Positions 29,953 to 51,500 of a stretch of 64,000 nt of DNA are shown piece by piece. How positions within the stretch are numbered: position 1 is the stretch's first letter; each line of letters opens with the position of its first letter. Under the pieces are notes generated by a model. That model was given only the letters and a program-made list of their open reading frames with translations, made no database searches and was not told where the DNA came from. The translations under genes and the position numbers were made by a program. The DNA comes from Gemmatimonadota bacterium (GTDB taxonomy: Bacteria > Gemmatimonadota > Gemmatimonadetes > Gemmatimonadales > Gemmatimonadaceae), in NCBI GenBank assembly GCA_021324775.1, contig JAJPIM010000023.1, positions 53,176 to 117,175 of the forward strand, read 5' to 3'.

Positions 29953-30131
29953 CGCGGCGTGTATCTCTGGACGGGCGAACCTCCGAATTGCCCTTCGGCG
30001 AGCCGGATGAGAGGCCCTCGCCGGGCGCCAGGACTGCCCGGGTCCCGCGACCTCTGGCACGGCCGGTCGTCTGCCCCTAGGAAACTCGTAACTGTTTGAT
30101 CCGCCTTCGCCTCCGGGGCTTCTCCTCAAGC

Positions 30132-32533: not shown

Positions 32534-33838
32534 CTAGCCAGACTGGTCAGTCGGAGTCTGACAGGAGCCGAGCGGGAGAGACCTTGAGGACCCGGGCGAT
32601 GCGTTCGATGATGTCCAGGGTAGCGTTGGCCTTGCCGCGTTCGATGAGGCCCATGTAGGTGCGGTGGATCTTGACCGCGTGTGCGAGCGACTCCTGGGAG
32701 TAGCGGGACTCCGTCTTCCGGATGTGCACCACTGTCCGGCCAAAGCGCACGCGCAAGGACGCCATGTGGCAATGGTGCAGTCCAATTCACCAGTGTGCCA
32801 CAGCATCAACAGGCCCAGCATATATAGTGCTATTTGCCGGGGGCTCGCATCCCGGACGGACCCCGGGAACGGGGGCGCTCGCGGGTTCACCTCGCCGGTC
32901 GCGGCGCCGCCTGGCTCGTCGACGTCGTCCGCGTGTGGTGAGAGAGGAACGCCGGTACCGCTGGCCGGTCCGCCCGCCTGGCGCGCAGTGGGCGGCCGGG
33001 TCAGGCGGTTCGCCACCAGCGCCACGAGTGCATCCGGCCCGACGGTGCGGACCAGCGCGCTCGGCCGGCACCCTGTCACGTCACGGGTGTCTCGGGCCAG
33101 TGCATCCGGGGTGCCATATCCCAGCCGGGCCGCGATATCCGCGACGCGGTCGGACCCGCCCCTCAGGTAGTGGTAGGCCCGGATCACTCGCGCGGCCCGC
33201 ACGAACAGGAGCGCTGACGAGAGCCCTGCCCGTTGCAGGGCACGCGAGCACGTCCGTGGCGGCATGGCGGCCAGTCGTGCGAGCGCCGCGGACCCGCGCA
33301 CGGTGTGAGGTGCCCGGAACAGGATCGTGATTGCCGCATCGAGGGGTCCTGGGAGCTTGGCGCGGGCAGGTGCGAGACGTTCGAGGAGGCTCGCGCTTAC
33401 CGTATCTGCGCGGGCCCGGTCGACGATTGCGCGGAACGCAGCTGGCTGATCGTCGTAGCCGCGAAGCGCCACGTGTCGCACCCCAAACGCGGCCAGCGCG
33501 AGCGATCCGCGCATCCCTTCGACTGACACCGACACATACGCGATCACGGGTAGCGCCTGGTACTTCGCGAGCAGGGTGCCGAGCGCCGGGATGTTCGTGG
33601 GCCCCAGTGCTTGCGGATCCACGACGACGACATCGATCGGCCGCGTCCGGATGACGATCTCCAGATCGGCGACACTTGCGACATCGTGGATCGCGTGATC
33701 GGCACCGGCGAGCACGCGAAAGCGCGCGAGGTCGGAGGGATTGAGGTACGTCGCGAAGTCCACGCAGCGAGCGAGTCGGAGGAAGCGAGACAGAACGGAT
33801 ACGTGGCGATGCGCGACGGGTCGAGACGGAGTGCTCAA
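32534..33838 (-). CDS. pseudo-receiver + AraC-like HTH regulator (paralog A); the ORF has an anomalous stop-free tail
   Basis: Track ORF of 434 aa. Residues 1 to about 280 align in architecture with paralogs 35897..36736 and 47664..48575, and end at ...LVALVANRL (about 33000). The remaining roughly 150 codons are low-complexity and overlap the XRE gene in another frame. Confidence 0.6.
   Translation of the reverse strand: MSTPSRPVAHRHVSVLSRFLRLARCVDFATYLNPSDLARFRVLAGADHAIHDVASVADLEIVIRTRPIDVVVVDPQALGPTNIPALGTLLAKYQALPVIAYVSVSVEGMRGSLALAAFGVRHVALRGYDDQPAAFRAIVDRARADTVSASLLERLAPARAKLPGPLDAAITILFRAPHTVRGSAALARLAAMPPRTCSRALQRAGLSSALLFVRAARVIRAYHYLRGGSDRVADIAARLGYGTPDALARDTRDVTGCRPSALVRTVGPDALVALVANRLTRPPTARQAGGPASGTGVPLSPHADDVDEPGGAATGEVNPRAPPFPGSVRDASPRQIALYMLGLLMLWHTGELDCTIATWRPCACALAGQWCTSGRRSPATPRSRSHTRSRSTAPTWASSNAARPTLPWTSSNASPGSSRSLPLGSCQTPTDQSG
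32547..32765 (-). CDS. XRE-family helix-turn-helix transcriptional regulator (72 aa)
   Basis: Track ORF: ...IRKTESRYSQESLAHAVKIHRTYMGLIERGKANATLDIIERIARVLKVSPARLL, a classic HTH_3/XRE signature. Confidence 0.8.
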   Translation of the reverse strand: MASLRVRFGRTVVHIRKTESRYSQESLAHAVKIHRTYMGLIERGKANATLDIIERIARVLKVSPARLLSDSD

Positions 33839-35896: not shown

Positions 35897-36736
35897 ATGA
35901 TCGCCGCCGCATGGGTGACGGACCCGCTCGCTCGCGAGCGACTCGCGGCCGCGATCACTGGGGAGCGCCGCCCGCGCCGGAGCAGACGTCCCGCCATTCT
36001 GTGGTGTGATTCCGGGCAAGACGTGATGGTCGCGGTCACCACCCGCGGGGCAAACGCTGTCATCATCGAACTCGCTGGCTTCGGCCCATCTGATCTCGCG
36101 TCCGCGACCGGCAGCGACATATCGCACATCGAGGAGGTGACGCGAGCGGTGCGCGGCCAGCACCCAGCCGTGCCGGTGCTCGTGTATGCGCCCCTCACCG
36201 CCGCGGCGTCGCGCGCCATTGTCACGCTGGCCCGCGCTGGCGTCGCCAACGTGATCATCGCCGGCCACGACGATCTCAATCACGCCGTCGGTCCGATCCT
36301 GGCCCGGGCGGCCTCGGCGTGTGCGGCGGAGGATGCGTACCGGATACTGTCCGCAGTCGCGTCGCCTGGAGTGGCAGCGATCCTGAACTACGGGCTGCGA
36401 TACGGAGCACGTGCCCCGACAGTCGCTGATGCGGCGGCCGCCCTGCATGTGCACCGGAAAACTCTGGCCGCGTGGTGCCACGCGGGCGGCGCGCCCTCAC
36501 CCCGTGTGCTCGTCACGTGGTGCCGTCTCATCATCGCTACGGAGCGACTCGCCGACGCACGCTGGCCCGCTGAGCGGGTCGCTCGCGTCCTCGGATTTGG
36601 GTCCGGGTCCGCGCTTGCCGGTTTGATCCGGCGCCACATAGGTCTTAGTCGCGCCGAACTCCGCGAGCGGGGCAGCAGCGTCGTCGTGGAGATGCTGGCT
36701 CGGAGGCTGGCCGATGGCCGTGAGCGGGTAACCTGA
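35897..36736 (+). CDS. pseudo-receiver + AraC-like HTH regulator (paralog B)
   Basis: Track ORF of 279 aa. N-terminal CheY-like layout lacking an obvious phospho-acceptor context. C-terminal HTH: TVADAAAALHVHRKTLAAW...ERVARVLGFGSGSALAGLIRRHIGLS. Confidence 0.7.
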   Translation: MIAAAWVTDPLARERLAAAITGERRPRRSRRPAILWCDSGQDVMVAVTTRGANAVIIELAGFGPSDLASATGSDISHIEEVTRAVRGQHPAVPVLVYAPLTAAASRAIVTLARAGVANVIIAGHDDLNHAVGPILARAASACAAEDAYRILSAVASPGVAAILNYGLRYGARAPTVADAAAALHVHRKTLAAWCHAGGAPSPRVLVTWCRLIIATERLADARWPAERVARVLGFGSGSALAGLIRRHIGLSRAELRERGSSVVVEMLARRLADGRERVT

Positions 36737-37190: not shown

Positions 37191-37454
37191 TTCGGCCGCG
37201 CATGCTATGCCTCCGGAGCTATCCACGGCGTGACTATCCGCACCTCACTTTTGCACCCGATCACGGATCCTCTGACGGCCCGCTGACGGCTGGCACCCAC
37301 TGTCTCACACATGCGGTTGGCCGGATAGCAGCGAGTGGGACGCTCGCGGCGTGCCCAAGCGACTGGCTCGGCGCTCTGGACGGCGCTGCCGAGTCTTGTG
37401 CTGGCGCGGGCGGCACGCGCGTGGGACGCGCTGGTGGCTGAATCGGCGCGGCGC

Positions 37455-38105
37455 GTGTCGGAGGACAAGGGAAAGCCTGCTGAGGAAGCCGACCGCACGC
37501 TGCTCAAGCGGCTTGCGGCCGGCGATGAAGAGGCGCTCGAGCGTCTCTTTCTTGCCCACGCCGGCGCACTGCACCGGGTAGCCTACCGGTACCTCCACTC
37601 ATCGTGGGCCGCGCGCGCCGTCGTGCAGGACGTGTTCACCGCCGTGTGGTGGCGGCGTACTACGCTTGCTGTGCGCGGACCGATCGGCGCGTATCTCACG
37701 GTGGCCGTCCGGAACCGTGCGCGCACCGTCCTGCGCGAAGAGTTGCGCCGCCGAGAGCGTGACGCACGGTGGGTCGAGGACAGCGGGAAGCCGGAGAGCG
37801 AGAACAGCAAGCGTGCCGCCGCGGCCGAAGAGGCGGGAGGAACCCGAGGGCGGATGGCCCCCGGCGATCTCGCGGACGCACGAGCCGCCGTGCAGGCCGC
37901 GCTCGCCGCACTCCCCGATCGCCAGCGCACCGTCTTCCGGCTGCGCGTCGAAGAACAGATGTCCAACGCCGAAGTGCGGGCCGCGATTGGTGCGGTCTCG
38001 GTCAAGGCGGTCGAACGGATATTCTCCCGCGCGGTTCGCGCCTTGCGCGCGCGGCTCCTGCCGCCGGACGGCGGCCGAAGCCAACCCAGGCGCCGCGGCC
38101 GGTAA
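37455..38105 (+). CDS. ECF (sigma-70 family) RNA polymerase sigma factor, FecI-like
   Basis: Track ORF 37335..38105. A GTG at 37455 gives a typical ECF length. Region 2: LLKRLAAGDEEALERLFLAHAGALHRVAYRYL. Region 4: LPDRQRTVFRLRVEEQMSNAEVRAAIGAVSVKAVERIFSRA. Confidence 0.8.
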   Translation: MSEDKGKPAEEADRTLLKRLAAGDEEALERLFLAHAGALHRVAYRYLHSSWAARAVVQDVFTAVWWRRTTLAVRGPIGAYLTVAVRNRARTVLREELRRRERDARWVEDSGKPESENSKRAAAAEEAGGTRGRMAPGDLADARAAVQAALAALPDRQRTVFRLRVEEQMSNAEVRAAIGAVSVKAVERIFSRAVRALRARLLPPDGGRSQPRRRGR

Positions 38106-38111
38106 GGCGCG

Positions 38112-39338
38112 ATGCCGACGCCTCCCGAGCGTGCTTCGATCCTCGCCGCGATTCGAGCGGGGGTTTTGGCCTTGCGGCGGCGTCTACATGTCGTGAGGTA
38201 CACACTCCGCCCGGCGCGCCCCTGGCGTTTTCCGGTCACCACTCGCCGTACGCAGGCAGACTCGGCCGGCGATCCGGGCGTTTTGCTGGAAGGCTATCTG
38301 GTGAGCGAGCTGGGTGCTGTGGAGCGGGAGCTGTTCGAGTCCTGGGTCGCGATGGACAGCGACCGAGGGCTGACCATCGAGGCGCTTCGCCATTCGTATG
38401 ACGAGCCGTATGACGAGCCGGATGCGGGGGAGTGGTGGGCCGAGTGCCGGAAGCGGATACGTATGCCCTGGAGCGGGCGGTTGGGTGACACGGTCGACCT
38501 CACGGTGACCGGCTCTGACCTTCGGATTGTCAGGCCGGTCATTGCGACTACCGGCCGGTGGCTGTCGCCCGGATGGTTCGGTCTCGCGGCGTCGATTCTG
38601 TGTGTTTCGCTGGGCGTTTGGGCTTTCCACTCCAGGAGAGACTCCGCGGCTAGCGCCATGCATCTCGCCGAACACTCGTACGCGACGGCCCGTGGCGAGC
38701 GTGCGGTGCTCACGCTCGGTGGCGCGACTGTGGTCCTGGGTCCGGAAAGTGTGCTTCGGATTTCGGGCAGCTACGGCGTCCGTGATCGCACGGTCTCGCT
38801 CACGGGGCACGCCTACTTCGATGTCGCTCATGATGCTGGCCATCCATTCCGGGTGTGGGCCGGTGGAGTTCTGGCTGAGGACATCGGCACACGGTTCGAT
38901 ATCCGTGCGTACGGGCGCGATTCGGTGATGCGGCTCGTGGTCGCGGACGGCGCGGTCGTGATGCACACCCGGCGTGTCCCGGCGGACGGATCGCACGACA
39001 GCGCAGTGCCGATCTCGTCGGTGGTCGTCACCCGCGGGATGATGGCGACGGCCGGTGTGGACGACGTCGTGCGGGTGCGGTCCGGGCTCGCCGCGGACCG
39101 CTATCTGTCCTGGAGTGATGGGCGGCTGGCGTTCGACGACACGCCGCTACCTGAGGTCGTGGCGGAGCTCAGCCGGTGGTACGACCTCGACATTCGGCTC
39201 GGCGATGCTCGGCTCGCATCGAGGACATTGACCGCGTCCTTCGACGACCCAGCCGCCGATGTGCTGGTGGCACTCGAAGGCGCACTCGGCATACGCGCAA
39301 CCCGTGTGGGGCGTGTCGTGACGCTGTATCCGCCCTGA
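38112..39338 (+). CDS. FecR-family anti-sigma / transmembrane sensor
   Basis: Track ORF of 408 aa. One TM segment (WFGLAASILCVSLGVWAF). FecR domain, and a C-terminal signature: LAFDDTPLPEVVAELSRWYDLDIRLGD...LTASFDD. It starts 6 nt after the sigma gene. Confidence 0.85.
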   Translation: MPTPPERASILAAIRAGVLALRRRLHVVRYTLRPARPWRFPVTTRRTQADSAGDPGVLLEGYLVSELGAVERELFESWVAMDSDRGLTIEALRHSYDEPYDEPDAGEWWAECRKRIRMPWSGRLGDTVDLTVTGSDLRIVRPVIATTGRWLSPGWFGLAASILCVSLGVWAFHSRRDSAASAMHLAEHSYATARGERAVLTLGGATVVLGPESVLRISGSYGVRDRTVSLTGHAYFDVAHDAGHPFRVWAGGVLAEDIGTRFDIRAYGRDSVMRLVVADGAVVMHTRRVPADGSHDSAVPISSVVVTRGMMATAGVDDVVRVRSGLAADRYLSWSDGRLAFDDTPLPEVVAELSRWYDLDIRLGDARLASRTLTASFDDPAADVLVALEGALGIRATRVGRVVTLYPP

Positions 39339-39429
39339 GATCCGTCCCGCGGGGATAGGCCGCGAGACCGTCTGCCCATCCGAAGTCTGTTTCTCACCGT
39401 GCAGCCATCCACGACCGTGGGGGGGAGCT

Positions 39430-42171
39430 ATGGATCGTCCTCGAGTCCGCCGAAGCACATCCGGTAACGTATGGCGAGTGCTGGTTTCGCTTGCCGCCAT
39501 GATGGTCGCCGTAAGCAGTGGTGCCGAGAATGCGGCGCCAGTGCCCGATCAAGTTCCGGCGTTCTACGCGGCGCCGGTGGATGCTGGCGGCAAGCTCCAG
39601 CGCCTCGACACGGCGCGAACCGCGATCCTCAGCCGGCGCATCACGATCGCTGTGCGTGATGCGACGATCCCGGAAGCACTGGCGGCGATCTCGGAGCAGT
39701 CGGGGCTGCGGTTTACCTACGACCATGCGGTATTGCCGGCCCGCACACGAGTGACGCTCTCCCGCCAATCAGTGACCGTCGCGGCGGCGCTGACCCACGT
39801 CCTGCGTGGCGCGAACGTGGACGTGGAGCTGACGCCAGACGGATTGGCGTCGGTTGTCGCACATCGTGCAGTTCAGGATAGCGGCGCGATCACGGGGCGC
39901 GTGACGGACAGCAAGACAGGGCAGGGGATCGCGCACGCCACGCTGCTGGTGGAGGGTATTGCGCGTGGCGCCACGACCGACGACAGCGGCGCATACCGGA
40001 TCGCGGACGTGGCACCAGGCACGTACACGCTTGGCGTGCGGTTCCTGGGGTACGTCGAGGCGCGGCGGACCGTGACGGTGGTCGCGGGCCAGTCGCTGGT
40101 GGTCAATGTGGCGCTCGTGCAATCAGTCAATCAGCTCGATCAGGTTGTCGTGGCCGGGACGGTTGTGCCGACCGAGGTCAAGGCAATTCCCACGCCGGTT
40201 TCGGTAATCACCGCGACCGACATCGATCTGCAACGGCCACAAACAGTCGCACAGCTCTTTCGGCAGGCAGTGCCGAGTGCGGTCGCATGGGATATTGCGA
40301 CGGATCCTCAGCAAACGAGCTTCGCCGTTCGCGGTGGCAGCACGCTCAATATCGGAGCTGGCTCGATGAAGGTGTACCTGGACGGCATCGAGGTCACCGA
40401 CCGTACGTTTGCTGCAGTCGACCCGGCAAGCATCGACCGGATCGAAGTAATTCGCGGCCCAGAAGCAGGGACGATCTACGGCTCCGACGCGATCTCTGGT
40501 GTCCTTCTGGTTACGACGCGACATGGCTCTCCCAACTCAACCCGTCCCGAGGTGAACCTCCAGGCAGCCGCCGGCGTGGTGCAAGGGCCGTATGCTGACC
40601 AGGGAGGAGGCAACGTGGCTCGGCAAGAGTACTCCGGGTCGGTCAATGGCGGCACACAGTCCGCCAGCTATTCTCTCGGCGGCGGCTATGCAAGCACCGG
40701 CAACTGGGTGGCCCAGGGTGCCACGTCAATCCCGAGTGGGTTCGGCAGTGTTCATATCGCGCAGGACCGTATCACGGTCGATATCACTGGCCGGGACTAC
40801 ATCCAGCAGGTGGGCGAGGCGTTTCCGCCGGACTTTGCGTCAACTGGCATTCCGACCTACACCAAGCCGACCAATCAGTTTCTGACTTCACAAGAGCAGA
40901 CGGTTGGCGCTAGCATCGGCTTCACGCCAGCCAGTTGGTGGCATCACTCGCTCACGATCGGAGTCGATCGCACTCTGAACGATCTCCGTTCGAGCGCTCC
41001 GGCTTTGACAACTCCCGCGGACACTTTTCTCACAGTCGACGAGCAGAACGAAAGCAGGCTGACCTTGGCGTACAACACGTCGGTTCTGCTACAGATCAAC
41101 AGGATGGTTTCAGCCAACGTGACGGCCGGCGTAGATCACTACGATCTCGGCAACGATTCGTATTTCACAAGCGGTGCGACCAACACCACAGGCACGATCG
41201 AGACCGATCCTGGCCAGCCGTTCACCGTCTCACGGGCACCGTTGACGAACACCGGCGTTTTTGTTCAGACGCAGGTGGGCGTGGCGGACCAATTGTTTTT
41301 CACGGCTGGAGTACGAGCGGAACAAAACTCGGCATTCGGGCAGCAGCTCGGGACACCGGTATCTCCTCGATTTGGGATTGCCTATGCCCCATCTCTTGGG
41401 TCGCTGACGCTGAAATTGAGGGCGTCGTACGGGCAAGCCATCCGGCCGCCCGATCCGGGCGAAGAGGAAGCGATCCTGACGCCGTCGACGCTCCAACTCG
41501 CCAATCCGCGGTTGAGTCCAGAGCGGCAGAGCGGTTGGGACACCGGGATAGATGCGGCGTTCGGCGGCCGCGGTTCGGTCGGGGTCACGTACTACGACCA
41601 AGTCGCCAGCGATCTGATTGATGGCGTGACAATCAACGCCGACACGAATCCTCAGGTCCAGCAATTCCAGAACCTCGGCCGGGTTCAAAACCGGGGTGTC
41701 GAGCTGGAAGGCACCGTGCGATTGGGGTTCGGCCAAATCGCCGCGCAATACGCCATCACGAGCAGCCGCGTCGAGTCGCTGGGCCCTTTGTACGGCGGCG
41801 ATCTCAAGGTGGGTGATCAACTGCTTGTCGTGCCGCAACATACTGGCGGCCTGTCGCTGGCGATGTTGCCGCTGCGCAGGACGACGGTCACGGTCGGACT
41901 ATCCTATGTGGGTACCTGGACGAACTACGACGTCCTCGCTGAACTGAGTTGCTTCGGCGGCACGGGACCCTGTGCGGCTACGTCCCGCGGATACATCCGG
42001 CCCTATCCGGGGTTTGCCAAGGCAAATCTGGCTGTTACGCAACAACTCACGTCTTTGGTCTCTGCATTCGTGACGGTAAAGAATGTCACCAACAACGACA
42101 CGTATGAATTCTTCAACGCTGAACCGATTCAGGGACGCGTAACGGTTGCGGGCGTCCGTGTCCGCTACTAA
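39430..42171 (+). CDS. TonB-dependent receptor/transducer with N-terminal STN signalling domain and CarboxypepD_reg domain
   Basis: Track ORF of 913 aa. Signal peptide. STN-like RITIAVRDATIPEALAAISEQSGLRFTYD. GRVTDSKTGQGIAHATLLVEG...GAYRIADVAPGTYTL. Plug (IDRIEVIRGPEAGTIYGSDAISGV), and a beta-barrel ending ...VRVRY. Confidence 0.85.
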   Translation: MDRPRVRRSTSGNVWRVLVSLAAMMVAVSSGAENAAPVPDQVPAFYAAPVDAGGKLQRLDTARTAILSRRITIAVRDATIPEALAAISEQSGLRFTYDHAVLPARTRVTLSRQSVTVAAALTHVLRGANVDVELTPDGLASVVAHRAVQDSGAITGRVTDSKTGQGIAHATLLVEGIARGATTDDSGAYRIADVAPGTYTLGVRFLGYVEARRTVTVVAGQSLVVNVALVQSVNQLDQVVVAGTVVPTEVKAIPTPVSVITATDIDLQRPQTVAQLFRQAVPSAVAWDIATDPQQTSFAVRGGSTLNIGAGSMKVYLDGIEVTDRTFAAVDPASIDRIEVIRGPEAGTIYGSDAISGVLLVTTRHGSPNSTRPEVNLQAAAGVVQGPYADQGGGNVARQEYSGSVNGGTQSASYSLGGGYASTGNWVAQGATSIPSGFGSVHIAQDRITVDITGRDYIQQVGEAFPPDFASTGIPTYTKPTNQFLTSQEQTVGASIGFTPASWWHHSLTIGVDRTLNDLRSSAPALTTPADTFLTVDEQNESRLTLAYNTSVLLQINRMVSANVTAGVDHYDLGNDSYFTSGATNTTGTIETDPGQPFTVSRAPLTNTGVFVQTQVGVADQLFFTAGVRAEQNSAFGQQLGTPVSPRFGIAYAPSLGSLTLKLRASYGQAIRPPDPGEEEAILTPSTLQLANPRLSPERQSGWDTGIDAAFGGRGSVGVTYYDQVASDLIDGVTINADTNPQVQQFQNLGRVQNRGVELEGTVRLGFGQIAAQYAITSSRVESLGPLYGGDLKVGDQLLVVPQHTGGLSLAMLPLRRTTVTVGLSYVGTWTNYDVLAELSCFGGTGPCAATSRGYIRPYPGFAKANLAVTQQLTSLVSAFVTVKNVTNNDTYEFFNAEPIQGRVTVAGVRVRY

Positions 42172-42186
42172 CCCCACACCGTCCAG

Positions 42187-44553
42187 ATGAACTTCACCGT
42201 GCGACCAATAGTGACATGGGGTGTCGCTGTGCTCGAGGCTCTCCTCGCCTCCAGCGGTGCACTCGCGCAGGCGTCCGATTCGTTATCCATCAGCGCCGCG
42301 CTATCTCAGCCCTTGTTCCTCGACTACATGCCAGTGTCGATGTCGCCCGACGGTCACGCGGTCGCCTATACGATCTGCTCCGTAGACCGCGTGAACAGCG
42401 ACACACTGATTGCCGGCTATACCCGAACGGGTGCTACGGGATCGGCGCGAGGCTGCGAGGTGTGGATCGCGGAGTTGAAGCGCAACGTGGCGGTTCGTCT
42501 CAATGACAGGCCAGGTGTGAACGCCTGGGCGCCTCAATGGTCGCCCGATGGAACGAGGGTCGCCTACTACTGTGATGCCAATGGTGTCGCGCGCCTGTGG
42601 ATCTGGGACGCGGCCGTCGGAACAAGTCATCCGGTTTCAGATGCGATCGTACGGCCTTACACGCCGCTCGAGGTCCCTCGGTGGACGCCGGACAGCCGCG
42701 ACGTGGTCACGCGGATCCTGCGGTATGGCACCACCCTGGATGCGACGAGAGGCAGCGAGCATCTCATCGGGATGTCCTGGGATACTGTGGGCCGAGTGCC
42801 TGGTTCGACGGTGGCCCTGTATCGAACTGACTCAACTTGGCGTACCCAGACTCGGCTCATACCCTCGACAGTAAGCCTATCCGAATCCTTCTATGCCGGT
42901 GACCTGGCGCTGATCCGCGTCGCCACGGGAAAGGTGACCGTGCTTGCGCACGGCTATAGGCCATTTGCGTACTGGGTATCGCCTGACGGCCGCTTTGTCG
43001 CATTTACTTCAATGCACGGTATAACGAATGCGACGGCCACCATCGCCGAGTACCGAGACGACTTGGTGGTGGTTCCACTCAACGACCGTGTGCCGCCTTC
43101 GCCGAGGCTGGTCGCAGACCGCGCAGTCATCTCGCCATATGGGACCGGGGTCGCCTGGTCGCCCCGGGGTAGCGCCCTCGCGTATGCGATCGCTGAGCCT
43201 GACGGAACTGAATCGTACAATATCCTTCACACAAACGACTGGAGCATCAAACACTATCTGGCGCCTGACAGCATCGGTCACAGGCTTAGAAGCCGGGACG
43301 GAGCTCAGCCGCTCCGATGGGATTCAGCCGGCCAAGTGCTGCTGATCGTATCCGACTCCACTGTGGCTCAACTCACCATTGATAGCAACTCGTTCCGCGT
43401 GGTGGCCCAGCCGCCCCGCGGGACGTCGATCGTCTCGTTCATCGGCCCGAGTACCGGCAATACGGCATGGGACGATGGCGGCAAAGGCCTTGTGGTTGTA
43501 TCTCGCAATGACTCGACCAAGCGGATGGGTTTTGCGAGGATCGACTGTCGCACCGGTGTGTGGACCCAGGTAACGGACGAGGAACAGTACATCGGGTCGA
43601 GACAATTCACCGCAAGCGACGTATCGGCCGATGGGCGGAGTCTCGTGTACGCATCAGAGGGAGCGGCGAGCCCCCGAGATCTATGGATTGCAGACACAAG
43701 CCTCGTCCACTCCAGGCGGCTGACCAATGTTGCTCCGTCGCTCGTCGGCAAATCTTTTGGCAAAACGCGGCTGGTCCATTGGAAAGCGGTCACCGGCGAG
43801 CCGGTCAGCGGTGCGCTGTTGTTGCCGTCCGATTATGTGCCCGGGCATCGGTATCCTTTGATCGTCTATCCATACCCGCGGGAGCACCGCTCCAACAATG
43901 TCTTCCGCTTCGGGCTTCAAGGGGAAGGCACTGAGAACATGCAACTGTTGGCGACGCGTGGGTTTGCGGTGCTGGCTCCTGACGCGCCAATCCGATTGAG
44001 CGATCAGATGCGGAGCTTGGCGGACGCTATCATGCCGGGTGTTGACCAGGTCATTGCCATGGGGATCGCTGACTCCGCACGCATTGGTCTGATCGGCCAT
44101 AGCTGGGGCGGTTACACGGTGTTGGCGCTGCTGGTACAAACTCACCGGTTCAGGGCCGCGATCATGAGGGGTGGATACGGCGATCTCTTTGCCGACTATG
44201 GCGAAATGCAAGGTACTGGCGCGACGTTCGGCCAGTTACGCCTCGAGTCGTGGCTGGGTACCACTCCGTGGAAGGACCTGGCGCGATACATCGACAACTC
44301 ACCCGTGTTCTTTCTCGACCGGGTGGATACGCCGCTACTGATCATCGAGGGTGGAGCGGAGACCACGGTTCCTCCGCACGAGGCGGCAGAGGTGTTCGTC
44401 GATCTGCGGCGGCTTGGGAAGGAGGTCGAGTACGCTCTCTACGGGGGCGAGAATCACGGAGAGATCGGATGGCGGTACGCGAATCAACAGGACTACCTGG
44501 CGCGGACGATTCAATGGTTCCAGAGATTTCTCGGAGACGCCGGGTCGAACTAG
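42187..44553 (+). CDS. secreted S9 (prolyl oligopeptidase family) serine peptidase; candidate lasso-peptide isopeptidase
   Basis: Track ORF of 788 aa. Signal peptide ...SSGALAQA. N-terminal beta-propeller-like repeats (WSPDG x several). C-terminal alpha/beta hydrolase with GHSWGGY. Sits 15 nt after the TonB receptor gene and is convergent with the lasso operon. Confidence 0.75.
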   Translation: MNFTVRPIVTWGVAVLEALLASSGALAQASDSLSISAALSQPLFLDYMPVSMSPDGHAVAYTICSVDRVNSDTLIAGYTRTGATGSARGCEVWIAELKRNVAVRLNDRPGVNAWAPQWSPDGTRVAYYCDANGVARLWIWDAAVGTSHPVSDAIVRPYTPLEVPRWTPDSRDVVTRILRYGTTLDATRGSEHLIGMSWDTVGRVPGSTVALYRTDSTWRTQTRLIPSTVSLSESFYAGDLALIRVATGKVTVLAHGYRPFAYWVSPDGRFVAFTSMHGITNATATIAEYRDDLVVVPLNDRVPPSPRLVADRAVISPYGTGVAWSPRGSALAYAIAEPDGTESYNILHTNDWSIKHYLAPDSIGHRLRSRDGAQPLRWDSAGQVLLIVSDSTVAQLTIDSNSFRVVAQPPRGTSIVSFIGPSTGNTAWDDGGKGLVVVSRNDSTKRMGFARIDCRTGVWTQVTDEEQYIGSRQFTASDVSADGRSLVYASEGAASPRDLWIADTSLVHSRRLTNVAPSLVGKSFGKTRLVHWKAVTGEPVSGALLLPSDYVPGHRYPLIVYPYPREHRSNNVFRFGLQGEGTENMQLLATRGFAVLAPDAPIRLSDQMRSLADAIMPGVDQVIAMGIADSARIGLIGHSWGGYTVLALLVQTHRFRAAIMRGGYGDLFADYGEMQGTGATFGQLRLESWLGTTPWKDLARYIDNSPVFFLDRVDTPLLIIEGGAETTVPPHEAAEVFVDLRRLGKEVEYALYGGENHGEIGWRYANQQDYLARTIQWFQRFLGDAGSN

Positions 44554-44626
44554 CCGATCAAGAACGCCGAGCCGACAGAGCCGGCGGAAGTCAAGAGCCA
44601 GTGGGGACTGAGGCCGCTCACGTCGG

Positions 44627-44770
44627 CTAGAGTTGGAACCCTACGCTGCCAGGTGCCATCCCCAAAAGGTGAATCCGGTCCACGGGATCTTTGGTGCCAG
44701 CAACAAACTGCTTCGTGGTCTCGACGAGACGGCCCGCGTTGGTGAGCTGCGGTGTGGTATAGCTCTTCAT
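44627..44770 (-). CDS. lasso peptide precursor (47 aa), not in the ORF track
   Basis: Own translation: MKSYTTPQLTNAGRLVETTKQFVAGTKDPVDRIHLLGMAPGSVGFQL*. AGGAGA/GGAGAT lies 4 nt upstream of the ATG, which is 26 nt downstream of the cyclase stop. The leader fits YxxPxLxxxGxxxxxTx. Confidence 0.8.
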   Translation of the reverse strand: MKSYTTPQLTNAGRLVETTKQFVAGTKDPVDRIHLLGMAPGSVGFQL

Positions 44771-44796
44771 TGTTATCTCCTGGACTGTGTGTCCGG

Positions 44797-46713
44797 TCAG
44801 GCGTGTTTGGAATGCAACTTCTGAGTCCTGCTAACGTTGTACTGATCTCTAGCAACTCGTGCGACCTCCGGTCCCCACCGGCCCGAGCGTACCTGCAACC
44901 ACAACTCGACATCGACAACCGACTCCACCATCCCACTCACGACTTCCGCATCCTCCGTATCCCGTCTATTTGCGTCTAGTTCGGCCTTTAGGCGCTCAGG
45001 GTCGATGACGCCCAGCGCACCCAGCATCGATTCGTTCAAAAGCGCGCGAATGAACCTGCTCTCCTTCAGTAGGGAGTGTACCGTCAGGCCTCCCGCGTTT
45101 CCTTTTCCTACTCGGGTGCGCACAACCTCCGGCACAATGCCGCGCATCGATTCGCGCAGCACCCATTTCCGCGCGTGAGGTCGAACACACATGGCCGCTG
45201 GCAGATGCAACGCGAATTCGACCAGCGGCCGGTGTAGGTATGGATGGCGGATGTCGAGCGCGTCTCGGTCTACACCGCTGCCGAGAATGGAGGGAATGGC
45301 GCCGACTGCCGATGCCAGCGCGAATTCGTATTTGGAGCCCGCGGGTCCCGAATACAGGAGACCCGAGCCGACTCGCTGGTTGAGGCGGTACTGTCGCACA
45401 AGACCAGCACTCACCCACGGCGGTACAGACGATTCCAGCCCGCGCACCACTAGTTGGCGGAGGCGACTCGGTATCAATGGCAATACGACGTTCTGATAGG
45501 CCAGATCCCAGAACGAGACGCGACCGATCGCTGCCCGGTGTACCATCTCCCGAAGTGCGTCCCTGACTCGTCCGCGGGCGACCCAATCTGCAAAGAAGAA
45601 CATCGTCCCGAGGAAGAGATTGTCGCCGCCGCTGCCCGTCAGCAGAGTTGAGCCGCCCGCAGCTGTCACCGCATCGACGACACCCCCGTCGCGGGCCGCA
45701 ACCGTGTAAGAGCAAACACAGGGCTGATCGAACCGGGGCAGATCATCGAGGATCGCCCACCGGTCCAGTTGATGCGGAATTAGCACATTTCGAATGCCGT
45801 AGTGCGCCACGACCGCATCGGAATACCAGCGTTCATCTGCGGCCGTGCCGATCGGATCCACGAATGAGACCGTGCCCCCAACACCGTCCGGGAGAGCGCC
45901 TTTCGATGCCATCCATTGGGCCGTGCTGACAACTGATGACGAGTCGAGCCCGCCCGACAGATGCGCCCACGTGCGCGGTCCGTCTGTAACACAATTCCTG
46001 ACTGCGTCAGTAAGGAGCTGGCGTACAGCATCGACTTGGTCCGTCTCAGACCGCAGATCGACGCCTTGGGCTTGCGCGTCGCTCACGTTCCAGTAACTCG
46101 CCACCCGCGGCAGCCCGTGCTCGAACCGCAGCACGCTCGCCGCCGGCAATGCCGACACACGCGGATACACGGTGCTCGCGGGATCAGGGGCGCAGTACGA
46201 CACCCACGCCGCCAGATATTCGATGTTGTAGTCGTCCCCTTGTGCCAGCAATTCCGCCCGGGAGGAGAACGTCACTACTCCAGGGCTGGGTGTCGCGTAA
46301 TACAACTGCTTTACCCCGAACGTGTCGCGCGCCGCAATCAGGGTCCGCGTATCCGCCTCCCACACGACAAAGGCGAAATCGCCCAGGAGACGCGCCACTC
46401 CCGCCGTCCCGCGCCGGAGCGCCACCTCGCCGGCAAGCCCGAGATCGCCAATCCCCGGATCGGCATCGCCCAGCAGCTCGAGCATCTCCGCCCGGTTATC
46501 GATGCGGGCCACGCCCACCACCGTCACTGGCCCCGATCGCACGATCGCCGGCGGACACGCACCGTGTTCCGGCCCCACGACCGCGATGAGTCCGTCCGCG
46601 GTCACCCAGTGGAGTGGATGATCCCGGCAGTACGGCGCTCCACGTATTACCGTGCGAAACGACAACGGTGGCGGGCCGCCATCGAGGCGCACCGCTCCCG
46701 CAAACATTCTCAC
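44797..46713 (-). CDS. lasso peptide cyclase (asparagine synthetase B homolog, McjC-like)
   Basis: Track ORF of 638 aa. The N-terminus MRMFAGAV lacks the Cys-2 glutaminase nucleophile. The ATP-pyrophosphatase motif HLSGGLDSS is present. 4-nt overlap with the B2 gene. Confidence 0.85.
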   Translation of the reverse strand: MRMFAGAVRLDGGPPPLSFRTVIRGAPYCRDHPLHWVTADGLIAVVGPEHGACPPAIVRSGPVTVVGVARIDNRAEMLELLGDADPGIGDLGLAGEVALRRGTAGVARLLGDFAFVVWEADTRTLIAARDTFGVKQLYYATPSPGVVTFSSRAELLAQGDDYNIEYLAAWVSYCAPDPASTVYPRVSALPAASVLRFEHGLPRVASYWNVSDAQAQGVDLRSETDQVDAVRQLLTDAVRNCVTDGPRTWAHLSGGLDSSSVVSTAQWMASKGALPDGVGGTVSFVDPIGTAADERWYSDAVVAHYGIRNVLIPHQLDRWAILDDLPRFDQPCVCSYTVAARDGGVVDAVTAAGGSTLLTGSGGDNLFLGTMFFFADWVARGRVRDALREMVHRAAIGRVSFWDLAYQNVVLPLIPSRLRQLVVRGLESSVPPWVSAGLVRQYRLNQRVGSGLLYSGPAGSKYEFALASAVGAIPSILGSGVDRDALDIRHPYLHRPLVEFALHLPAAMCVRPHARKWVLRESMRGIVPEVVRTRVGKGNAGGLTVHSLLKESRFIRALLNESMLGALGVIDPERLKAELDANRRDTEDAEVVSGMVESVVDVELWLQVRSGRWGPEVARVARDQYNVSRTQKLHSKHA

Positions 46714-47141
46714 GGCGCCATCCCCGCCCGACGCACCGCCGCGTCGAACGCCGTGAAGATCCGCACGTGCTCCGGGACGTCGTTGATCGGCTCACCGCGA
46801 TACTCGACCCACGCGTGTGCCATGAACGGGTACCGCTGGATCCCGAGCCGCATCTGCGCGGCGATGCCGCGGCACCGGAGATAGTCATACAACACCAGCG
46901 ACCGCTCGAGGCACTGCGCCCGGCCCGGGAAGAGCGCCGCTCCCATCGCCACCGCATACTCGATCGCGGCCACCACCCGCGGGTCGCCATCACCAACGAC
47001 CTCCACCCGAGCGATCCGGCGCTCGATCCGCTGCCGGGTCCGATCGTAGCCCGCGAGCTTGAGCGCCCAGCGCACGATCGTCACCCGCGCCAGACACTCC
47101 GCGGCGGACGGGACACGCAAGGCGCGGCGGTCAGCTCTCAT
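46710..47141 (-). CDS. lasso peptide biosynthesis B2 protein (transglutaminase-like leader peptidase)
   Basis: Track ORF of 143 aa: ...FPGRAQCLERSLVLYDYLRCRGIAAQMRLGI...FMAHAWVEYRGEPIND, the Cys/His/Asp arrangement of McjB-type proteases. Confidence 0.85.
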   Translation of the reverse strand: MRADRRALRVPSAAECLARVTIVRWALKLAGYDRTRQRIERRIARVEVVGDGDPRVVAAIEYAVAMGAALFPGRAQCLERSLVLYDYLRCRGIAAQMRLGIQRYPFMAHAWVEYRGEPINDVPEHVRIFTAFDAAVRRAGMAP

Positions 47142-47493
47142 GAGCGGCGCCCGATGTCTCCTGGATCAGTAAACCCGCCGCCCGCAGATGCCGAAGCAGA
47201 GTCGTGACGTCCTGCTCGACGGGATCCACGTCACCCACCAGTGGGACGTCGTACTCCGCCCGGATGGTCCCGACGATGGCCTCGAGCGTCGTCCCGTCCG
47301 CGAGCAGCTCCCACACCCGCGCTCCGACGTCATTCAGCGTGTGGTACCGGCCGCGAACTGGATCAAGCAGCACCGTCTCACCGGCGCGCGTGGCCGACAT
47401 CACGTGCAGCGGACGCACCAGCCGGCCACGAAACTCCGCGTCTCGTGCAGCACCAGGCGCGGCCCGGCGGATGAAACGCTCCACAAACCGCAT
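47131..47493 (-). CDS. lasso peptide biosynthesis B1 protein (PqqD-like RiPP recognition element)
   Basis: Track ORF of 120 aa: ...GETVLLDPVRGRYHTLNDVGARVWELLADGTTLEAIVGTIRAEYDV...DVTTLLRHLRAAGLL. GAGAGGA lies 7 nt upstream of the ATG. 11-nt overlap with the B2 gene. Confidence 0.85.
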   Translation of the reverse strand: MRFVERFIRRAAPGAARDAEFRGRLVRPLHVMSATRAGETVLLDPVRGRYHTLNDVGARVWELLADGTTLEAIVGTIRAEYDVPLVGDVDPVEQDVTTLLRHLRAAGLLIQETSGAAHES

Positions 47494-47663
47494 GACGCCA
47501 TCCTCTCGAAGAGTCGCCAGCCGGCAGGCACGCGTTCTGGCTCGCCGATCGGTGCTCGCGAGAGTTAGGGTCTAGATGCGGGCTCGCCTATCGCCGCAGC
47601 ACGCCAGAGTTGCGGCCGCGCGACGATCTTGCTCCGGCGCGACAGCCGCGCTCAACTCGACGC

Positions 47664-48575
47664 TCACTCCAGTGCTGTCATCGGTCGCGATCGGGGCCGC
47701 GCGACCTGGCCGGCGCGTGTTTCCAGCACCGGGTGAACGAGTGCGTTGCACGCGTACTCGAGCGCGGTCTCGAACTCCGCGCCCTCCCGCACGCGCGCCG
47801 GGGTCAGGCCGCCCAGATATTGCTGCATGAGACGGGTGATGGAGCTCGCGTGCGCGAAATGCCGGAGCCGCTGGATCCGCCGGGCCGGCCACCCATGCTC
47901 CGACATCAGCCACACGGCGTCCAGCGCCCGCACGGTCTGCAACACCACCCGCGCCGTCGCCCACCCCGATCGCACGAGCCGCCGCTCCACTGTCCTCGGC
48001 GACACCCGGCTCCATCGCGCGAGTTGATCCACTCCACGCCCACTCGTCGCCTTGAGCACCGCGATCGCGAGGAAAACCCGGAGCGGCGATGGCGCCAGCG
48101 GCAGTAGCCGCCGCAGAATCACCGGCACCGCACTCGATGGCTGCCCGCCCGTCATCACTCGGCGCAGCGCCGGCGGCAGCGGCTCCGCGGGCCGTACCAC
48201 GAACTCGATCCGTAACCCCGGGACCATCAACGCGGGCAACGCGTCGATCGTCAACCGGTCGGCGCGATCGTACACCACGATCGGCACTCTGCCCAAACCG
48301 CTCCCCGCTGCTCTCTGCCGCCATCCCACAATTCCGGCACGCAGGGCGTCGGCATCGGCCACCACGACGTCGATTGGCCCGCCCGCCATCGCTTCACCAA
48401 CCGCGTCCATCGAATCGAGGTATCGCAACACCGTCGCGTGCGCGAGCTGCTCGCCGATCATGCTCCGGTCGCCACCCCCGCGCAGCACCACACCGACTAC
48501 CGGTTTCGGCGGCCGGTCCAACACACTTGGCTCCGTACTCCTCACGGCATTCCCCTCGTCCTGCGATATTGGCAT
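47664..48575 (-). CDS. pseudo-receiver + AraC-like HTH regulator (paralog C), immediately upstream of the lasso operon
   Basis: Track ORF 47664..48593; the first ATG is at 48575. It has the same two-domain layout as 35897..36736. HTH: GVDQLARWSRVSPRTVERRL...RIQRLRHFAHASSITRLMQQYLGGLTP. Confidence 0.7.
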   Translation of the reverse strand: MPISQDEGNAVRSTEPSVLDRPPKPVVGVVLRGGGDRSMIGEQLAHATVLRYLDSMDAVGEAMAGGPIDVVVADADALRAGIVGWRQRAAGSGLGRVPIVVYDRADRLTIDALPALMVPGLRIEFVVRPAEPLPPALRRVMTGGQPSSAVPVILRRLLPLAPSPLRVFLAIAVLKATSGRGVDQLARWSRVSPRTVERRLVRSGWATARVVLQTVRALDAVWLMSEHGWPARRIQRLRHFAHASSITRLMQQYLGGLTPARVREGAEFETALEYACNALVHPVLETRAGQVARPRSRPMTALE

Positions 48576-49100
48576 GACGCGACCTCGGTCCACACGAGCC
48601 GGCTACGGCTTGCTCCGTATTGAATGCATGGACAAGCTCCACCGCGCTGACAAGAGGCGCACGCGTCCGCACTTGCAATTATTTCGTCGCACCGGCGTGT
48701 GTCTGCCAAAAACCGTTTACCGCGTTACGCGAACAGTTGGTGTGTCACCCGCCGGCGATATGTTCTCGCTCCGTCTTTACCGAGATCACACACGCGTCGG
48801 GGAACGCGACATCACGCGGGCTCGGGATGACGGCCGGATGACACCGCCACCAATGGGAATGGCAGCAGATATTGTGGCCGCATGACGCAGGCATGACGGT
48901 GGAACGACGACCGCTTGACGCTGCTGCGCCACGCACGGCCGGTATGATCGGATGCAACAATCCGCCACCTTCCGATGCTGCTGTGCCGTTTTGGCGCGCG
49001 GCTCGTACGCGGACCCCTTTCCCCGGGCGGTGCCTCCGGCTCCCGAATCCTGCCTCTTCTATAGTGGTGACCCCCGTCGCCGCGGATTCGTCCACCTTCC

Positions 49101-51500
49101 GTGGATAGGGATCGCCGCGGTCGGCCCGCACCCTGGGCGTCGCTTATCACGCTGCTCACCGCAGCTTATGTCGCGGCCTACCTCATCTACCTGGTCTGGA
49201 GCGAAAGCCCGGGTTGGGAGACGAGGCCTCTCGTGCACGGCATCGTCACTGACCTGGGGTACCTCCCGGTCAATCTTCTCATCGCCGCCGTCTTCTGGTG
49301 GGCCGCGCGCCGTGCCGCACAATATCCCGGATCGGCGCCCTCCCGCGACGCCATCAGTGACGCCGCGCCGAGCCAGACGCTCGCCCGCGCGCTCCGGCTC
49401 GTCGCCCTGCAATCCGCCCTCACCGCTGTTGGCGACATCGCCTGGTGGTATGTCGACATCGTCCAGGGCCGCGACCCCGTCAACTCCTGGGCAAATGGCA
49501 TCTACCTCGCCAGCTACGTGGTCATGCTGGCCGCCCTCGCCAGCATGCCCCGCGGGCGCCGCGCCAGACTCGAATGGTGGAAGTTCGCCCTCGATGCCGC
49601 CACGGTCCTCCTCGGCGGCGCCATCGTCATCGGGGTTGTCGTCCTCTGGCCACGTGCCTCCGCTCAACCTGCCGGCGGGACGCTCTCGTTCGAACTCGCC
49701 TACCCGCTCGCCGACCTCCTCATACTTCTGGGCATCACGACGGTCGCGCTCCGCCCCACCGGCCATCCGCCCGCCCCTCTCATCGTCCTGCTCGTCAGCC
49801 AGATCGCCTGTATCGCGAGCGATGTCCTCTACACGATCGTGTTTCTGCGCGGGACAGGCCCCGAAATCCCGTCCACTCCGGTCTGGAGCACGGCGCTACT
49901 CGGCGTCAGTTATGTCCTCCTCGCCGCGAGCGGCGAATGGTATCGCCGAGTGCCCGAACCGGAACCTGGTCCTGGCGGGGCGGCCGCGGCCGGCGAGCTG
50001 GCGGCCGATGACGCCATCGAGACGATGCACACCGCCAGCCCGCTTCCCTACATCGCCGCCGGCGCCGCCGCCACTCTCCTCATCTTCCTTGCCTGGCAAA
50101 GCTGGCCCGCGCCGCTCAGCGTCCTCGTCATCGCCGCCGTACCGGTCTTCGCCCTGATCGCTGTACGCGGAGTCCTCTCCAGTCATCAGAACGTGAGGCT
50201 CCTCACCGAGAACGCCGCTCGCACCGCGGAATCCCGCACTCGCTCACAACTCCACGCGCAACTCGTCAACGCCCAACGGATGGAGGCGGTCGGGCAACTC
50301 GCTGGCGGAGTCGCCCACGACTTCAACAACATCCTGACAGCCATCAGCGGCAACGCGGAACTGGCGATGGAGTCGCTCCCGCTCGACTCCTCCGCCCGCG
50401 ATGACCTACATGAGATCCGTGCCGGTGTCACTCGCGCCTCGGCCCTCACCCGCCAACTCCTGGCCTTCAGCCGCCGGCAAACGCTCCACCCACGCGTGGT
50501 CGATCTCAACACGGTGGTCGCAGGCTGCGAACCGATGCTCGCCCGCCTCATCGGCGAACACGTCCACCTCGAAACACATCTCGCTCGCAACGTCTCCTCG
50601 ATTCTCGCCGACCCTGGCCAGATCGAACAGGTACTGGTCAATCTCGTCGTCAACGCCCGTGACGCCATGCCCGGCGGCGGTCGCGTTCAGATCGAAACCG
50701 GAGAAGTAGTCATCACGCAGCCGGATCCGGTGAGGTGGCCCGGTCTCGTGCCCGGCCGTCATGTCCGCCTCTCCGTCCGCGACACGGGATGCGGCATGGA
50801 TCGCGAAACGCGCAAACGTGCCTTCGAACCGTTCTACACGACGAAGCCCCAGGGCAAAGGCACCGGACTCGGGCTCGCCACCGTCTACGGCATCGTCACG
50901 CAATCCGAAGGCTTGATCTTCATCGACAGCGAGCCCGGACTCGGCACGACCGTCGCCGCATACTTCCGCCCGACGGCGGCCAGGTCGCCATCGCCTCCAC
51001 TGCCCGCATCCTCCGCCGGCGCGCGACCGGCCGCCGGCAAAGGCGAGACGATTCTCGTCGTGGAGGACGAGCCGGCCGTCCGCCAACCAATAGCCCGCGC
51101 CCTCCGGCAGCAAGGCTACGTCGTACTGGAAGCAGAAGACGGCATGCATGGTCTCGATGTCAGCGCCCGGCACGCGAACGCGATCGATCTCGTGATCAGC
51201 GATGTCCGCATGCCACGCCTCATCGGCCCAGCGATGGTCGATCGGCTCCGCAGTGAACGCCCAGGGCTCCGCGCCATGTTCGTGTCGGGGCACACGTCGG
51301 CCGATCGCGGCGTTCCACCATCCCTCATCGCCGCGCAGCTCCTCGAGAAGCCGTTCACACTTCCTACGCTCTTTCGAAGAGTGCGGGCCGCGCTCGACAG
51401 TCCGCCTCCCCAAAGCGGGGAATCACCCGCGGGACCGGAGGCTGCCGCCACCGTCGGCGCGGCCGCAGGCGACCCCGATGAGGACTCCGGCGGGCTCTGA
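49101..51500 (+). CDS. hybrid sensor histidine kinase with polytopic membrane sensor domain and C-terminal receiver
   Basis: Track ORF of 799 aa (GTG start). About 10 hydrophobic segments. H-box [42 protein letters not shown]. Receiver: ILVVEDE...DVRMPRL. Confidence 0.85.
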   Translation: MDRDRRGRPAPWASLITLLTAAYVAAYLIYLVWSESPGWETRPLVHGIVTDLGYLPVNLLIAAVFWWAARRAAQYPGSAPSRDAISDAAPSQTLARALRLVALQSALTAVGDIAWWYVDIVQGRDPVNSWANGIYLASYVVMLAALASMPRGRRARLEWWKFALDAATVLLGGAIVIGVVVLWPRASAQPAGGTLSFELAYPLADLLILLGITTVALRPTGHPPAPLIVLLVSQIACIASDVLYTIVFLRGTGPEIPSTPVWSTALLGVSYVLLAASGEWYRRVPEPEPGPGGAAAAGELAADDAIETMHTASPLPYIAAGAAATLLIFLAWQSWPAPLSVLVIAAVPVFALIAVRGVLSSHQNVRLLTENAARTAESRTRSQLHAQLVNAQRMEAVGQLAGGVAHDFNNILTAISGNAELAMESLPLDSSARDDLHEIRAGVTRASALTRQLLAFSRRQTLHPRVVDLNTVVAGCEPMLARLIGEHVHLETHLARNVSSILADPGQIEQVLVNLVVNARDAMPGGGRVQIETGEVVITQPDPVRWPGLVPGRHVRLSVRDTGCGMDRETRKRAFEPFYTTKPQGKGTGLGLATVYGIVTQSEGLIFIDSEPGLGTTVAAYFRPTAARSPSPPLPASSAGARPAAGKGETILVVEDEPAVRQPIARALRQQGYVVLEAEDGMHGLDVSARHANAIDLVISDVRMPRLIGPAMVDRLRSERPGLRAMFVSGHTSADRGVPPSLIAAQLLEKPFTLPTLFRRVRAALDSPPPQSGESPAGPEAAATVGAAAGDPDEDSGGL

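Follow-up and report, generated by a model that had tools for sequence, protein, structure and literature searches.

A 64-kb stretch of Gemmatimonadota DNA (contig JAJPIM010000023.1; 64,000 nucleotides, hereafter the window, in whose own numbering all positions are given) probably carries a lasso-peptide biosynthetic gene cluster of the type that is paired with uptake and degradation functions, not with an ATP-binding cassette (ABC) exporter. We put the probability of this reading at roughly 0.78; it is built on gene content, family matches, precursor motifs and their conservation, and synteny, all read directly from the sequence. The biosynthetic genes are four minus-strand open reading frames (ORFs) within 44627..47493, whose coordinates and strand were checked in the sequence: a leader-binding protein (B1), a leader peptidase (B2), a macrolactam synthetase (C) and the precursor (A). 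A plus-strand module at 37335..44553 runs convergently with A and ends 73 nt from the precursor gene. It encodes a sigma factor, a FecR-type protein, a TonB-dependent receptor and a secreted S9 peptidase (E) that is a candidate lasso isopeptidase. A first-pass annotation of this DNA had placed the four minus-strand ORFs, all of which are present as it described them, and had read them as the minimal lasso machinery with its precursor, a view that the family matches and precursor motifs support.

The biosynthetic operon and its precursor

B1 and B2 overlap by 11 nt, and B2 and C by 4 nt. The start codon of A lies 26 nt past the stop of C and is preceded by an AGGAG Shine-Dalgarno sequence. These overlaps and the 26-nt spacer suggest a single, translationally coupled operon.

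Profile searches matched the 120-aa and 143-aa proteins to the PqqD and lasso B2 families, respectively, as the first-pass annotation had anticipated. B1 scores 72.3 bits against Pfam PqqD (PF05402; cutoff 23.4, E=4e-20), and its best relatives in the PDB are TbiB1 (E=4.6e-7), 9x90_B and TfuB1, which are lasso recognition elements for peptides made on the ribosome and modified after translation (RiPPs). B2 passes the curated cutoff of the NCBIfam model lasso_biosyn_B2 (NF033537; 75.4 bits against 33) and scores 75.5 bits against PF13471 (cutoff 26, E=4e-21); a search of solved structures by sequence found none for it. Its candidate catalytic triad is Cys77/His109/Asp120, with Cys77 in a QCLERS motif and His109 in AHAWVE. 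C contains Pfam Asn_synthase (111.6 bits) and GATase_7 domains. Among NCBIfam models, the lasso cyclase NF033535 ranks first for C (176.9 bits), with asparagine synthase behind at 122; neither score reaches its cutoff. About 600 homologues of C were found, and the PP-loop SGGxDSS (LSGGLDSSS in C) is invariant across 28 of them. The N-terminus of C reads MRMFAG and carries no Cys2 nucleophile, which confirms the earlier description of an Asn-synthetase homologue that lacks the nucleophile and keeps SGGLDSS.

The full product of A, MKSYTTPQLTNAGRLVETTK followed by QFVAGTKDPVDRIHLLGMAPGSVGFQL, is 47 aa long. The gene had been described as invisible to the ORF track; to standard gene callers it is not, since the public contig already lists it among its called genes (P0121), and a homologue, P0122, is 89% identical. 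A is the sole ORF of the window in which the leader motif and the C-terminal motif considered below occur together, and no additional precursor was found there. The 47-aa product matched no Pfam or NCBIfam family. An exhaustive search with it returned only 10 further precursor clusters and one artefact; the latter, P0243, was the top match, a 1124-aa tandem-repeat protein outside the window whose score is summed over its repeats and which is not a relative. Compared with the related locus L057, whose operon is ∼86% nucleotide-identical, A shows eight synonymous and five non-synonymous codon changes, and within the last 23 codons the changes are synonymous only. Judged by this pattern, A is under purifying selection.

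A scan with one genome per species yielded 53 related loci, nearly all from Gemmatimonadota metagenome-assembled genomes (Gemmatimonadales, Gemmatimonadaceae and Longimicrobiales). Precursors were counted wherever 250 nt or more of sequence follow C (46 loci), and the module wherever 6 kb or more do (33 loci). In 44 of the 46, between one and four precursor-like ORFs lie behind the cyclase gene; about 50 related loci keep to the order B1-B2-C-A as a rule. The first-pass annotation had called the terminal position of the precursor unusual; the order it gave is correct, but that order is invariant across the whole Gemmatimonadota family and is not peculiar to this locus.

The leader of A carries the motif YxxPxL, which is typical of actinobacterial (split-B) lasso precursors, the proteobacterial counterpart being I/V/LxxxA (PMC6784204). 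Tyr and Pro of this motif never vary among the 66 unique related precursors, 61 of which have Thr at position Y+15. In A, Thr19 stands at position −2 and an Asp at core position 8, a spacing shared across 67 related precursors: nearly all of them have an acidic residue nine positions after the Thr, usually followed by Pro. Given the leader Thr and the spacing of the acidic residue, cleavage is predicted after Thr19-Lys20, with an eight-residue ring closed between Gln1 and Asp8. The core would then begin QFVAGTKDPVD, and the predicted product is a 27-residue lasso with a monoisotopic mass of 2834.490 Da (computed as the core minus 18 Da). Cleavage site, ring size and plug residue are all predictions from the precursor alignment.

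The choice of residue 1 of the predicted ring is unusually free in this family, as read from the aligned precursors. Gly is found 19 times, Ala 9, Asn 7, Met 6, Gln 5, Ser 4 and Ile 4 times, besides Thr, Val, Leu, Arg, His, Glu and Cys, and Phe also occurs at this position among the ten further precursors from the exhaustive search. The authors of the metanodin study gave Gly, Cys, Ser and Ala as the position-1 residues observed experimentally, and Asn at this position was reported as a first in 2025, in metanodin (PMC12670498).

It is highly improbable that the locus is not a lasso cluster at all, C being a genuine amidotransferase and the small ORF non-coding. The 47-aa ORF without a family match would fit such a reading, as would the scores of C under the lasso-cyclase models and the outcome of a sequence search for solved structures, in which no lasso cyclase was found for C. 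Set against these are the absence of Cys2 from C, the translational coupling of C to the recognition element and to a B2 that passes its cutoff, and the recurrence in 44 of 46 loci of a precursor ORF with lasso-specific motifs, which is under purifying selection.

The convergent module and peptidase E

Of the 33 loci whose flanks are long enough, 27 show synteny between lasso genes and module, with cyclase identities as low as 35%. The sigma gene is syntenic with the FecR and receptor genes in related loci, and E is syntenic in 22 loci. The STN domain of the receptor scores 26.2 bits, just under cutoff, and is over cutoff in the orthologs of L011, L017 and L007.

Nowhere in the 64 kb could an ORF for an ABC transporter be detected. 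The first-pass annotation had recorded this absence and taken it as unusual; the exporter is truly missing, but its absence is a feature of known isopeptidase-type clusters, and the convergent module had gone unnoticed. The isopeptidase clade is defined by an isopeptidase, a TonB-dependent transporter, a sigma/anti-sigma pair and the lack of an ABC exporter, and the biological role of its lasso peptides has been called enigmatic (PMC9266682). The module found here matches this architecture, so the missing exporter is explained.

Several observations connect E with the lasso isopeptidases. The best NCBIfam model for E is that of the Atxe2 lasso isopeptidase (NF033523, 161.7 bits), which is also the best-scoring model for 14 of 14 members of the peptidase family tested, each under cutoff, and the best single-sequence match of E in the PDB is AtxE2. 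Residues Ser639, Glu725 and His757 of E align with Ser527, Glu610 and His638 of AtxE2 (chain numbering), which we take to be the catalytic residues of that enzyme. In the corresponding columns of the family, Ser and His are invariant and the acid is Glu in 17 of 30 and Asp in 13 of 30; the triad of isopeptidases is Ser-His-Glu/Asp (PMC9266682). Sec-type signal peptides are found throughout the family. An AlphaFold2 model of E (mean predicted local distance difference test score, pLDDT, 84) shows a propeller and a hydrolase domain, a trait of all S9 peptidases and not diagnostic.

A number of results weigh against the reading of the locus as an isopeptidase-type lasso cluster. For the biosynthetic proteins, the lasso PqqD chaperone models that lead the NCBIfam matches of B1 are under cutoff (58.8 against 70), as is the lasso-cyclase score of C (176.9 against 525). 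For the peptide, Gln1 lies outside the list of position-1 residues given by the metanodin authors (Gly, Cys, Ser, Ala; PMC12670498), so the predicted cleavage site could be one residue off, and the window holds no exporter for its exit from the cell. For E, the 161.7 bits are far below the curated NF033523 cutoff of 400. The family profile of E, compared with solved structures, scores 218 bits against the S9 carboxypeptidase 8wt1, 112 against AtxE2 and 44 against SpI-IsoP, and a fold search with the model of E returned the S9 carboxypeptidases 8wt1, 5yzo and 7ep9 first, with SpI-IsoP at rank 22 and AtxE2 outside the top 50. No public source names any relative as an isopeptidase.

These rankings invite a different reading, in which the lasso is made and E is a carboxypeptidase-type enzyme that acts on its conserved free C-terminus (G-x-V-G-F-x-L), either trimming the tail for maturation or removing the plug, upon which the lasso would unthread and become degradable. 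We regard this as unlikely, while giving it some weight. The closest solved relatives of E are S9 carboxypeptidases by profile and by predicted fold, the curated Atxe2 cutoff is not reached, and the tail motif tracks the peptidase/receptor module (see below); the fold ranking, however, discriminates poorly because all S9 enzymes share one fold, and Foldseek is unable to tell isopeptidases from the remaining S9 enzymes. In a control on the same C-terminal region, the Dpp5 model outscores Atxe2 for 8wt1 (193 against 95 bits), and for E the order is the other way round (112 for Atxe2 against 44), a lead of 68 bits for the isopeptidase model where a true S9 carboxypeptidase behaves in the opposite way. 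This control indicates some specificity in the preference of E for the Atxe2 model. The tandem peptidases of L019 and L028, which stand beside different precursors with the same tail, also fit better with an enzyme that recognizes the variable loop than with one that recognizes the shared tail. E is not placed in the AtxE2 family. Isopeptide hydrolysis is retained as its most likely activity because of the genomic context, in which TonB receptor, FecR and sigma factor make up exactly the set known from isopeptidase clusters.

Table 1. Features of the lasso locus, its surroundings and the exporter-bearing relatives (positions in the window unless a locus is named).
Feature	Position	Strand	Remarks
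B1, PqqD-like RiPP recognition element, leader-binding chaperone	47131..47493	-	120 aa
B2, transglutaminase-core Cys protease, leader peptidase	46710..47141	-	143 aa
C, Asn-synthetase-like ATP-dependent macrolactam synthetase (lasso cyclase)	44797..46713	-	638 aa
A, leader, codons 1-20: MKSYTTPQLTNAGRLVETTK	44711..44770	-	YxxPxL, Gly13, Thr19 at -2
A, core, codons 21-47 and stop: QFVAGTKDPVDRIHLLGMAPGSVGFQL	44627..44710	-	predicted Gln1-Asp8 ring, long variable loop, G-S-V-G-F-Q-L tail
Extracytoplasmic function (ECF)-type sigma-70 factor	37335..38105	+	Sigma70_r2 and Sigma70_r4_2 over cutoff
FecR-type anti-sigma factor/signal transducer	38112..39338	+	Pfam FecR and FecR_C over cutoff
TonB-dependent receptor, N-terminal STN and CarboxypepD_reg	39430..42171	+	Plug and barrel over Pfam cutoff
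E, secreted S9 serine peptidase, candidate lasso isopeptidase	42187..44553	+	788 aa; beta-propeller and alpha/beta hydrolase
AraC-like helix-turn-helix (HTH) regulator	47664..48593	-	directly upstream of B1; HTH_18 weak, 22 bits
Regulator-B1 intergenic region, conserved non-coding, probable promoter/operator	47494..47663	-	invariant blocks
Regulator/receptor-like neighbours	30096..32495 (+), 49101..51500 (+), 32534..33838 (-), 35897..36736 (+), 54078..56951 (-)
Related loci with in-line ABC transporter	L007, L010, L016-L019, L021, L023-L025, L027, L028, L031, L032, L051

The precursor tail and variation among related loci

The precursors of module-bearing loci share a C-terminal tail of the form G-x-[VIL]-G-F-x-L, while their rings and loops vary freely. 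Of 53 such precursors, 45 carry the motif, and near-variants such as SFGL stand at the end of most of the remaining eight; by column, the first Gly is found in 51 of 53, the second in 49, the Phe in 48 and the Leu in 45. The motif is missing from 11 of 11 Longimicrobiales-type precursors, whose loci are without the module and which have a [WYF]-E-x-[YW]-G signature of their own. No description of this conserved tail was found in the literature searched. The simplest reading of the alignment is that the Phe, with or without the terminal Leu, is the plug of a long-looped lasso whose tail is very short; the receptor or the peptidase could also use this tail as a handle for recognition. The idea that it mimics a beta-signal recognized by BamA was rejected, as the Gly positions are off the consensus and the required strand is out of reach for a threaded tail.

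The Longimicrobiales-type loci (L038, L041-L045, L047, L048 and L050) form a sister set with the order B1-B2-C-A and no peptidase/receptor module; their precursors have Gly1, ring closure within [WYF]-E-x-[YW]-G and Pro-rich acidic tails. The clear exception to the co-occurrence of tail and module is L031, which has both peptidase and receptor and yet no GFxL tail: its four tandem precursors (L031:11866-12719) combine the family leader with short, unrelated cores.

A more speculative proposal, which we think rather improbable, extends the role of the tail. The heptapeptide G-x-V-G-F-x-L would be an 'address tag' by which one module recognizes a whole family of peptides with hypervariable rings and loops. 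The peptides would be secreted and re-imported signals or cargo carriers, sensed through the TonB receptor, FecR and the ECF sigma factor, and the S9 peptidase would unplug them by C-terminal trimming instead of isopeptide cleavage. If this were true, tail trimming would be a way of catabolizing lassos that has not been described before.

In 15 relatives, a McjD-type ABC transporter (ABC_membrane and ABC_tran, ∼610 aa) is encoded between B1 and B2, and 14 of the 15 also keep the peptidase/receptor module. These loci bear on a further alternative, that the module is an unrelated neighbour for nutrient or peptide uptake and the lasso an ordinary antimicrobial with its exporter encoded elsewhere. 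We hold this to be very unlikely. ABC export belongs to the repertoire of the family, and TonB receptors, ECF sigma factors, AraC-like regulators and S9 peptidases abound in the region; but the module and the precursor gene converge in 27 of the 33 loci with long enough flanks, in Gemmatimonadota genomes whose cyclases share only 35-80% identity, exporter and module stand together in 14 loci, and the precursor tail motif follows the presence of the module. Pairing of the lasso genes with uptake and degradation functions is the reading that we retain.

The peptidase slot itself varies. At L007:12149-15544 (−) and L010:11946-15473 (−), between the precursor and the TonB receptor, the S9 peptidase is replaced by a fusion of ∼1130 aa that joins a PD40 beta-propeller to a metal-dependent Amidohydro_1 domain, an exchange of the catalytic domain on a retained propeller scaffold. 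This suggests that the slot needs a propeller-gated amide-bond hydrolase. At L029:3251-5197 (−) the peptidase slot holds a BNR/sialidase-like propeller protein, and proteins of the same kind lie between peptidase and receptor at L023:14620-16638, L024:6296-8305 and L027:14619-16631. S9 peptidases also occur as tandem paralogues, three at L019:7920-15374 and two at L028:12230-16979, in each case beside two different precursors; each peptide could have a peptidase of its own, which is what has been reported for AtxE1 and AtxE2.

Upstream of B1, the regulator gene is syntenic in many related loci, and its ortholog in L017 reaches the Pfam cutoff for HTH_18 and also matches HTH_AraC. The region between regulator and B1 holds long invariant blocks common to six related loci, among them CTGTCGC and GCGGCGATAGG, the latter ∼93 nt upstream of the B1 ATG. 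The window contains exactly two copies of the 12-mer GCGGSGATAGGC, one upstream of B1 and the other (39349..39360, +) upstream of the receptor gene. The 12-mer was dropped as a shared promoter motif: with one mismatch allowed, 5 copies are found against 1.8 expected, which is not significant, and relatives do not conserve the copy on the receptor side. A sigma-54 reading of the TGGCG…GC block upstream of B1 was rejected by inspection, its spacing being off consensus. A terminator between the convergent genes A and E was likewise not upheld; only a weak 5-bp hairpin is present, and 44540..44640 folds no better than shuffled sequences (z = −1.1). An Rfam scan of the whole window gave no match, and a search of the window for tRNA genes found none.

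The GC content is 0.661 on average in the window, 0.645 in the operon, 0.62 in the receptor gene, 0.61 in the peptidase gene and 0.576 in the precursor gene. The neighbourhood is dense in regulators, with two hybrid histidine kinase/response-regulator genes near the lasso locus, two further AraC-type HTH genes and a second receptor-like gene with CarboxypepD_reg and Plug domains.

Proposed pathway and comparison with known systems

A pathway consistent with these observations can be outlined, its biochemical steps being inferred from what is known of lasso biosynthesis, FecIRA-type cell-surface signalling and AtxE2. The minus-strand operon (AraC-like regulator, B1, B2, C and A) would be co-transcribed, as its gene overlaps and the 26-nt spacer suggest. 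B1 would bind the YxxPxL leader of the precursor and hand the precursor to B2, which would cut after Thr19-Lys20. C would then adenylate the side chain of Asp8 and join it to the new alpha-amine of Gln1, forming an eight-residue macrolactam around the C-terminal segment, with Phe25 (with or without Leu27) of the GSVGFQL tail as the probable steric plug and the long variable loop left over. The resulting 27-residue lasso of 2834.49 Da would leave the cell by a route that the window does not account for. The STN-type TonB receptor probably re-imports the peptide across the outer membrane, and its occupancy may be signalled through FecR to the ECF sigma factor. In the periplasm, the Sec-secreted S9 peptidase would open or destroy the lasso, most likely by isopeptide hydrolysis as AtxE2 does.

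The family bears on an open puzzle, namely why a cell makes a very stable peptide together with its receptor and its destroyer. It offers about 50 natural variants for comparison, with or without an in-line ABC exporter, with one to four precursors and with one to three peptidase copies, including the two loci in which a propeller-amidohydrolase fusion stands in place of the S9 peptidase. The tail that tracks the module and the free choice of ring residue 1 are testable handles on recognition by receptor, peptidase and cyclase. The cyclase family may tolerate position-1 residues not yet reported, which would be useful for lasso engineering. The first-pass annotation had taken the host for a member of a poorly explored GC-rich lineage; the host is an uncultured member of the Gemmatimonadales, a lineage of a soil phylum, and lasso clusters of this phylum have already been counted in antiSMASH surveys (PMC11316326). 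No characterized Gemmatimonadota lasso peptide and no description of the present architecture were found in the literature.

Of the known systems, the isopeptidase-type proteobacterial clusters (astexins with AtxE1 and AtxE2, sphingopyxin I with SpI-IsoP, benenodin with BenE, and metanodin) are comparable in accessory genes: they too have an S9 peptidase, a TonB transporter and a sigma/anti-sigma pair and lack an ABC exporter (PMC9266682), and the Ser-Glu-His triad of E aligns with three residues of AtxE2. In these clusters, however, B is fused, whereas the window has separate B1 and B2; the leader motif is the proteobacterial I/V/LxxxA instead of YxxPxL (PMC6784204); and the precursor comes first, preceded by a GntR-like regulator, whereas here it comes last and the regulator is AraC-like. 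E is only a distant relative of AtxE2, below the family cutoff, and the conserved precursor C-terminus is a property of the family described here. Isopeptidase genes have been found 'primarily' in alpha-proteobacteria (PMC13352647), whereas the host of this locus belongs to the Gemmatimonadota.

The rubrinodin cluster of Rubrivivax combines an ABC exporter with an isopeptidase/TonB/FecIR module, an architecture termed 'intermediate' (PMC9266682), and resembles in this the 14 relatives of the window locus that have both. It differs from the window, which is without an ABC transporter, and the exporter-bearing relatives place the exporter between B1 and B2.

In the core genes the locus resembles the actinobacterial split-B clusters, such as that of fusilassin/fuscanodin in Thermobifida fusca and that of TbiB1 in Thermobaculum. 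Separate B1 and B2 proteins, the YxxPxL leader and Thr at −2 are common to both, and TbiB1 and TfuB1 are the nearest solved relatives of B1. Actinobacterial split-B clusters are ordered A-C-B1-B2 or A-B1-B2-C and come with exporters or tailoring enzymes; we know of none with a TonB receptor, a FecR/sigma pair or an S9 peptidase.

Microcin J25 has an eight-residue ring, a long loop, a very short tail and aromatic plugs near the C-terminus, and is taken up in a TonB-dependent manner. The layout of ring, loop and tail is alike in the window peptide, the topology of which is a prediction only. The TonB-dependent receptor of microcin J25 is FhuA (PMC11006600). The microcin system has a fused McjB and the McjD exporter, and its peptide hijacks a foreign siderophore receptor of the target cells, whereas in the window the receptor is encoded in the cluster of the producer. 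Taken with the isopeptidase-type clusters, the locus would present the same accessory module joined to a split-B, YxxPxL-type core in another phylum.

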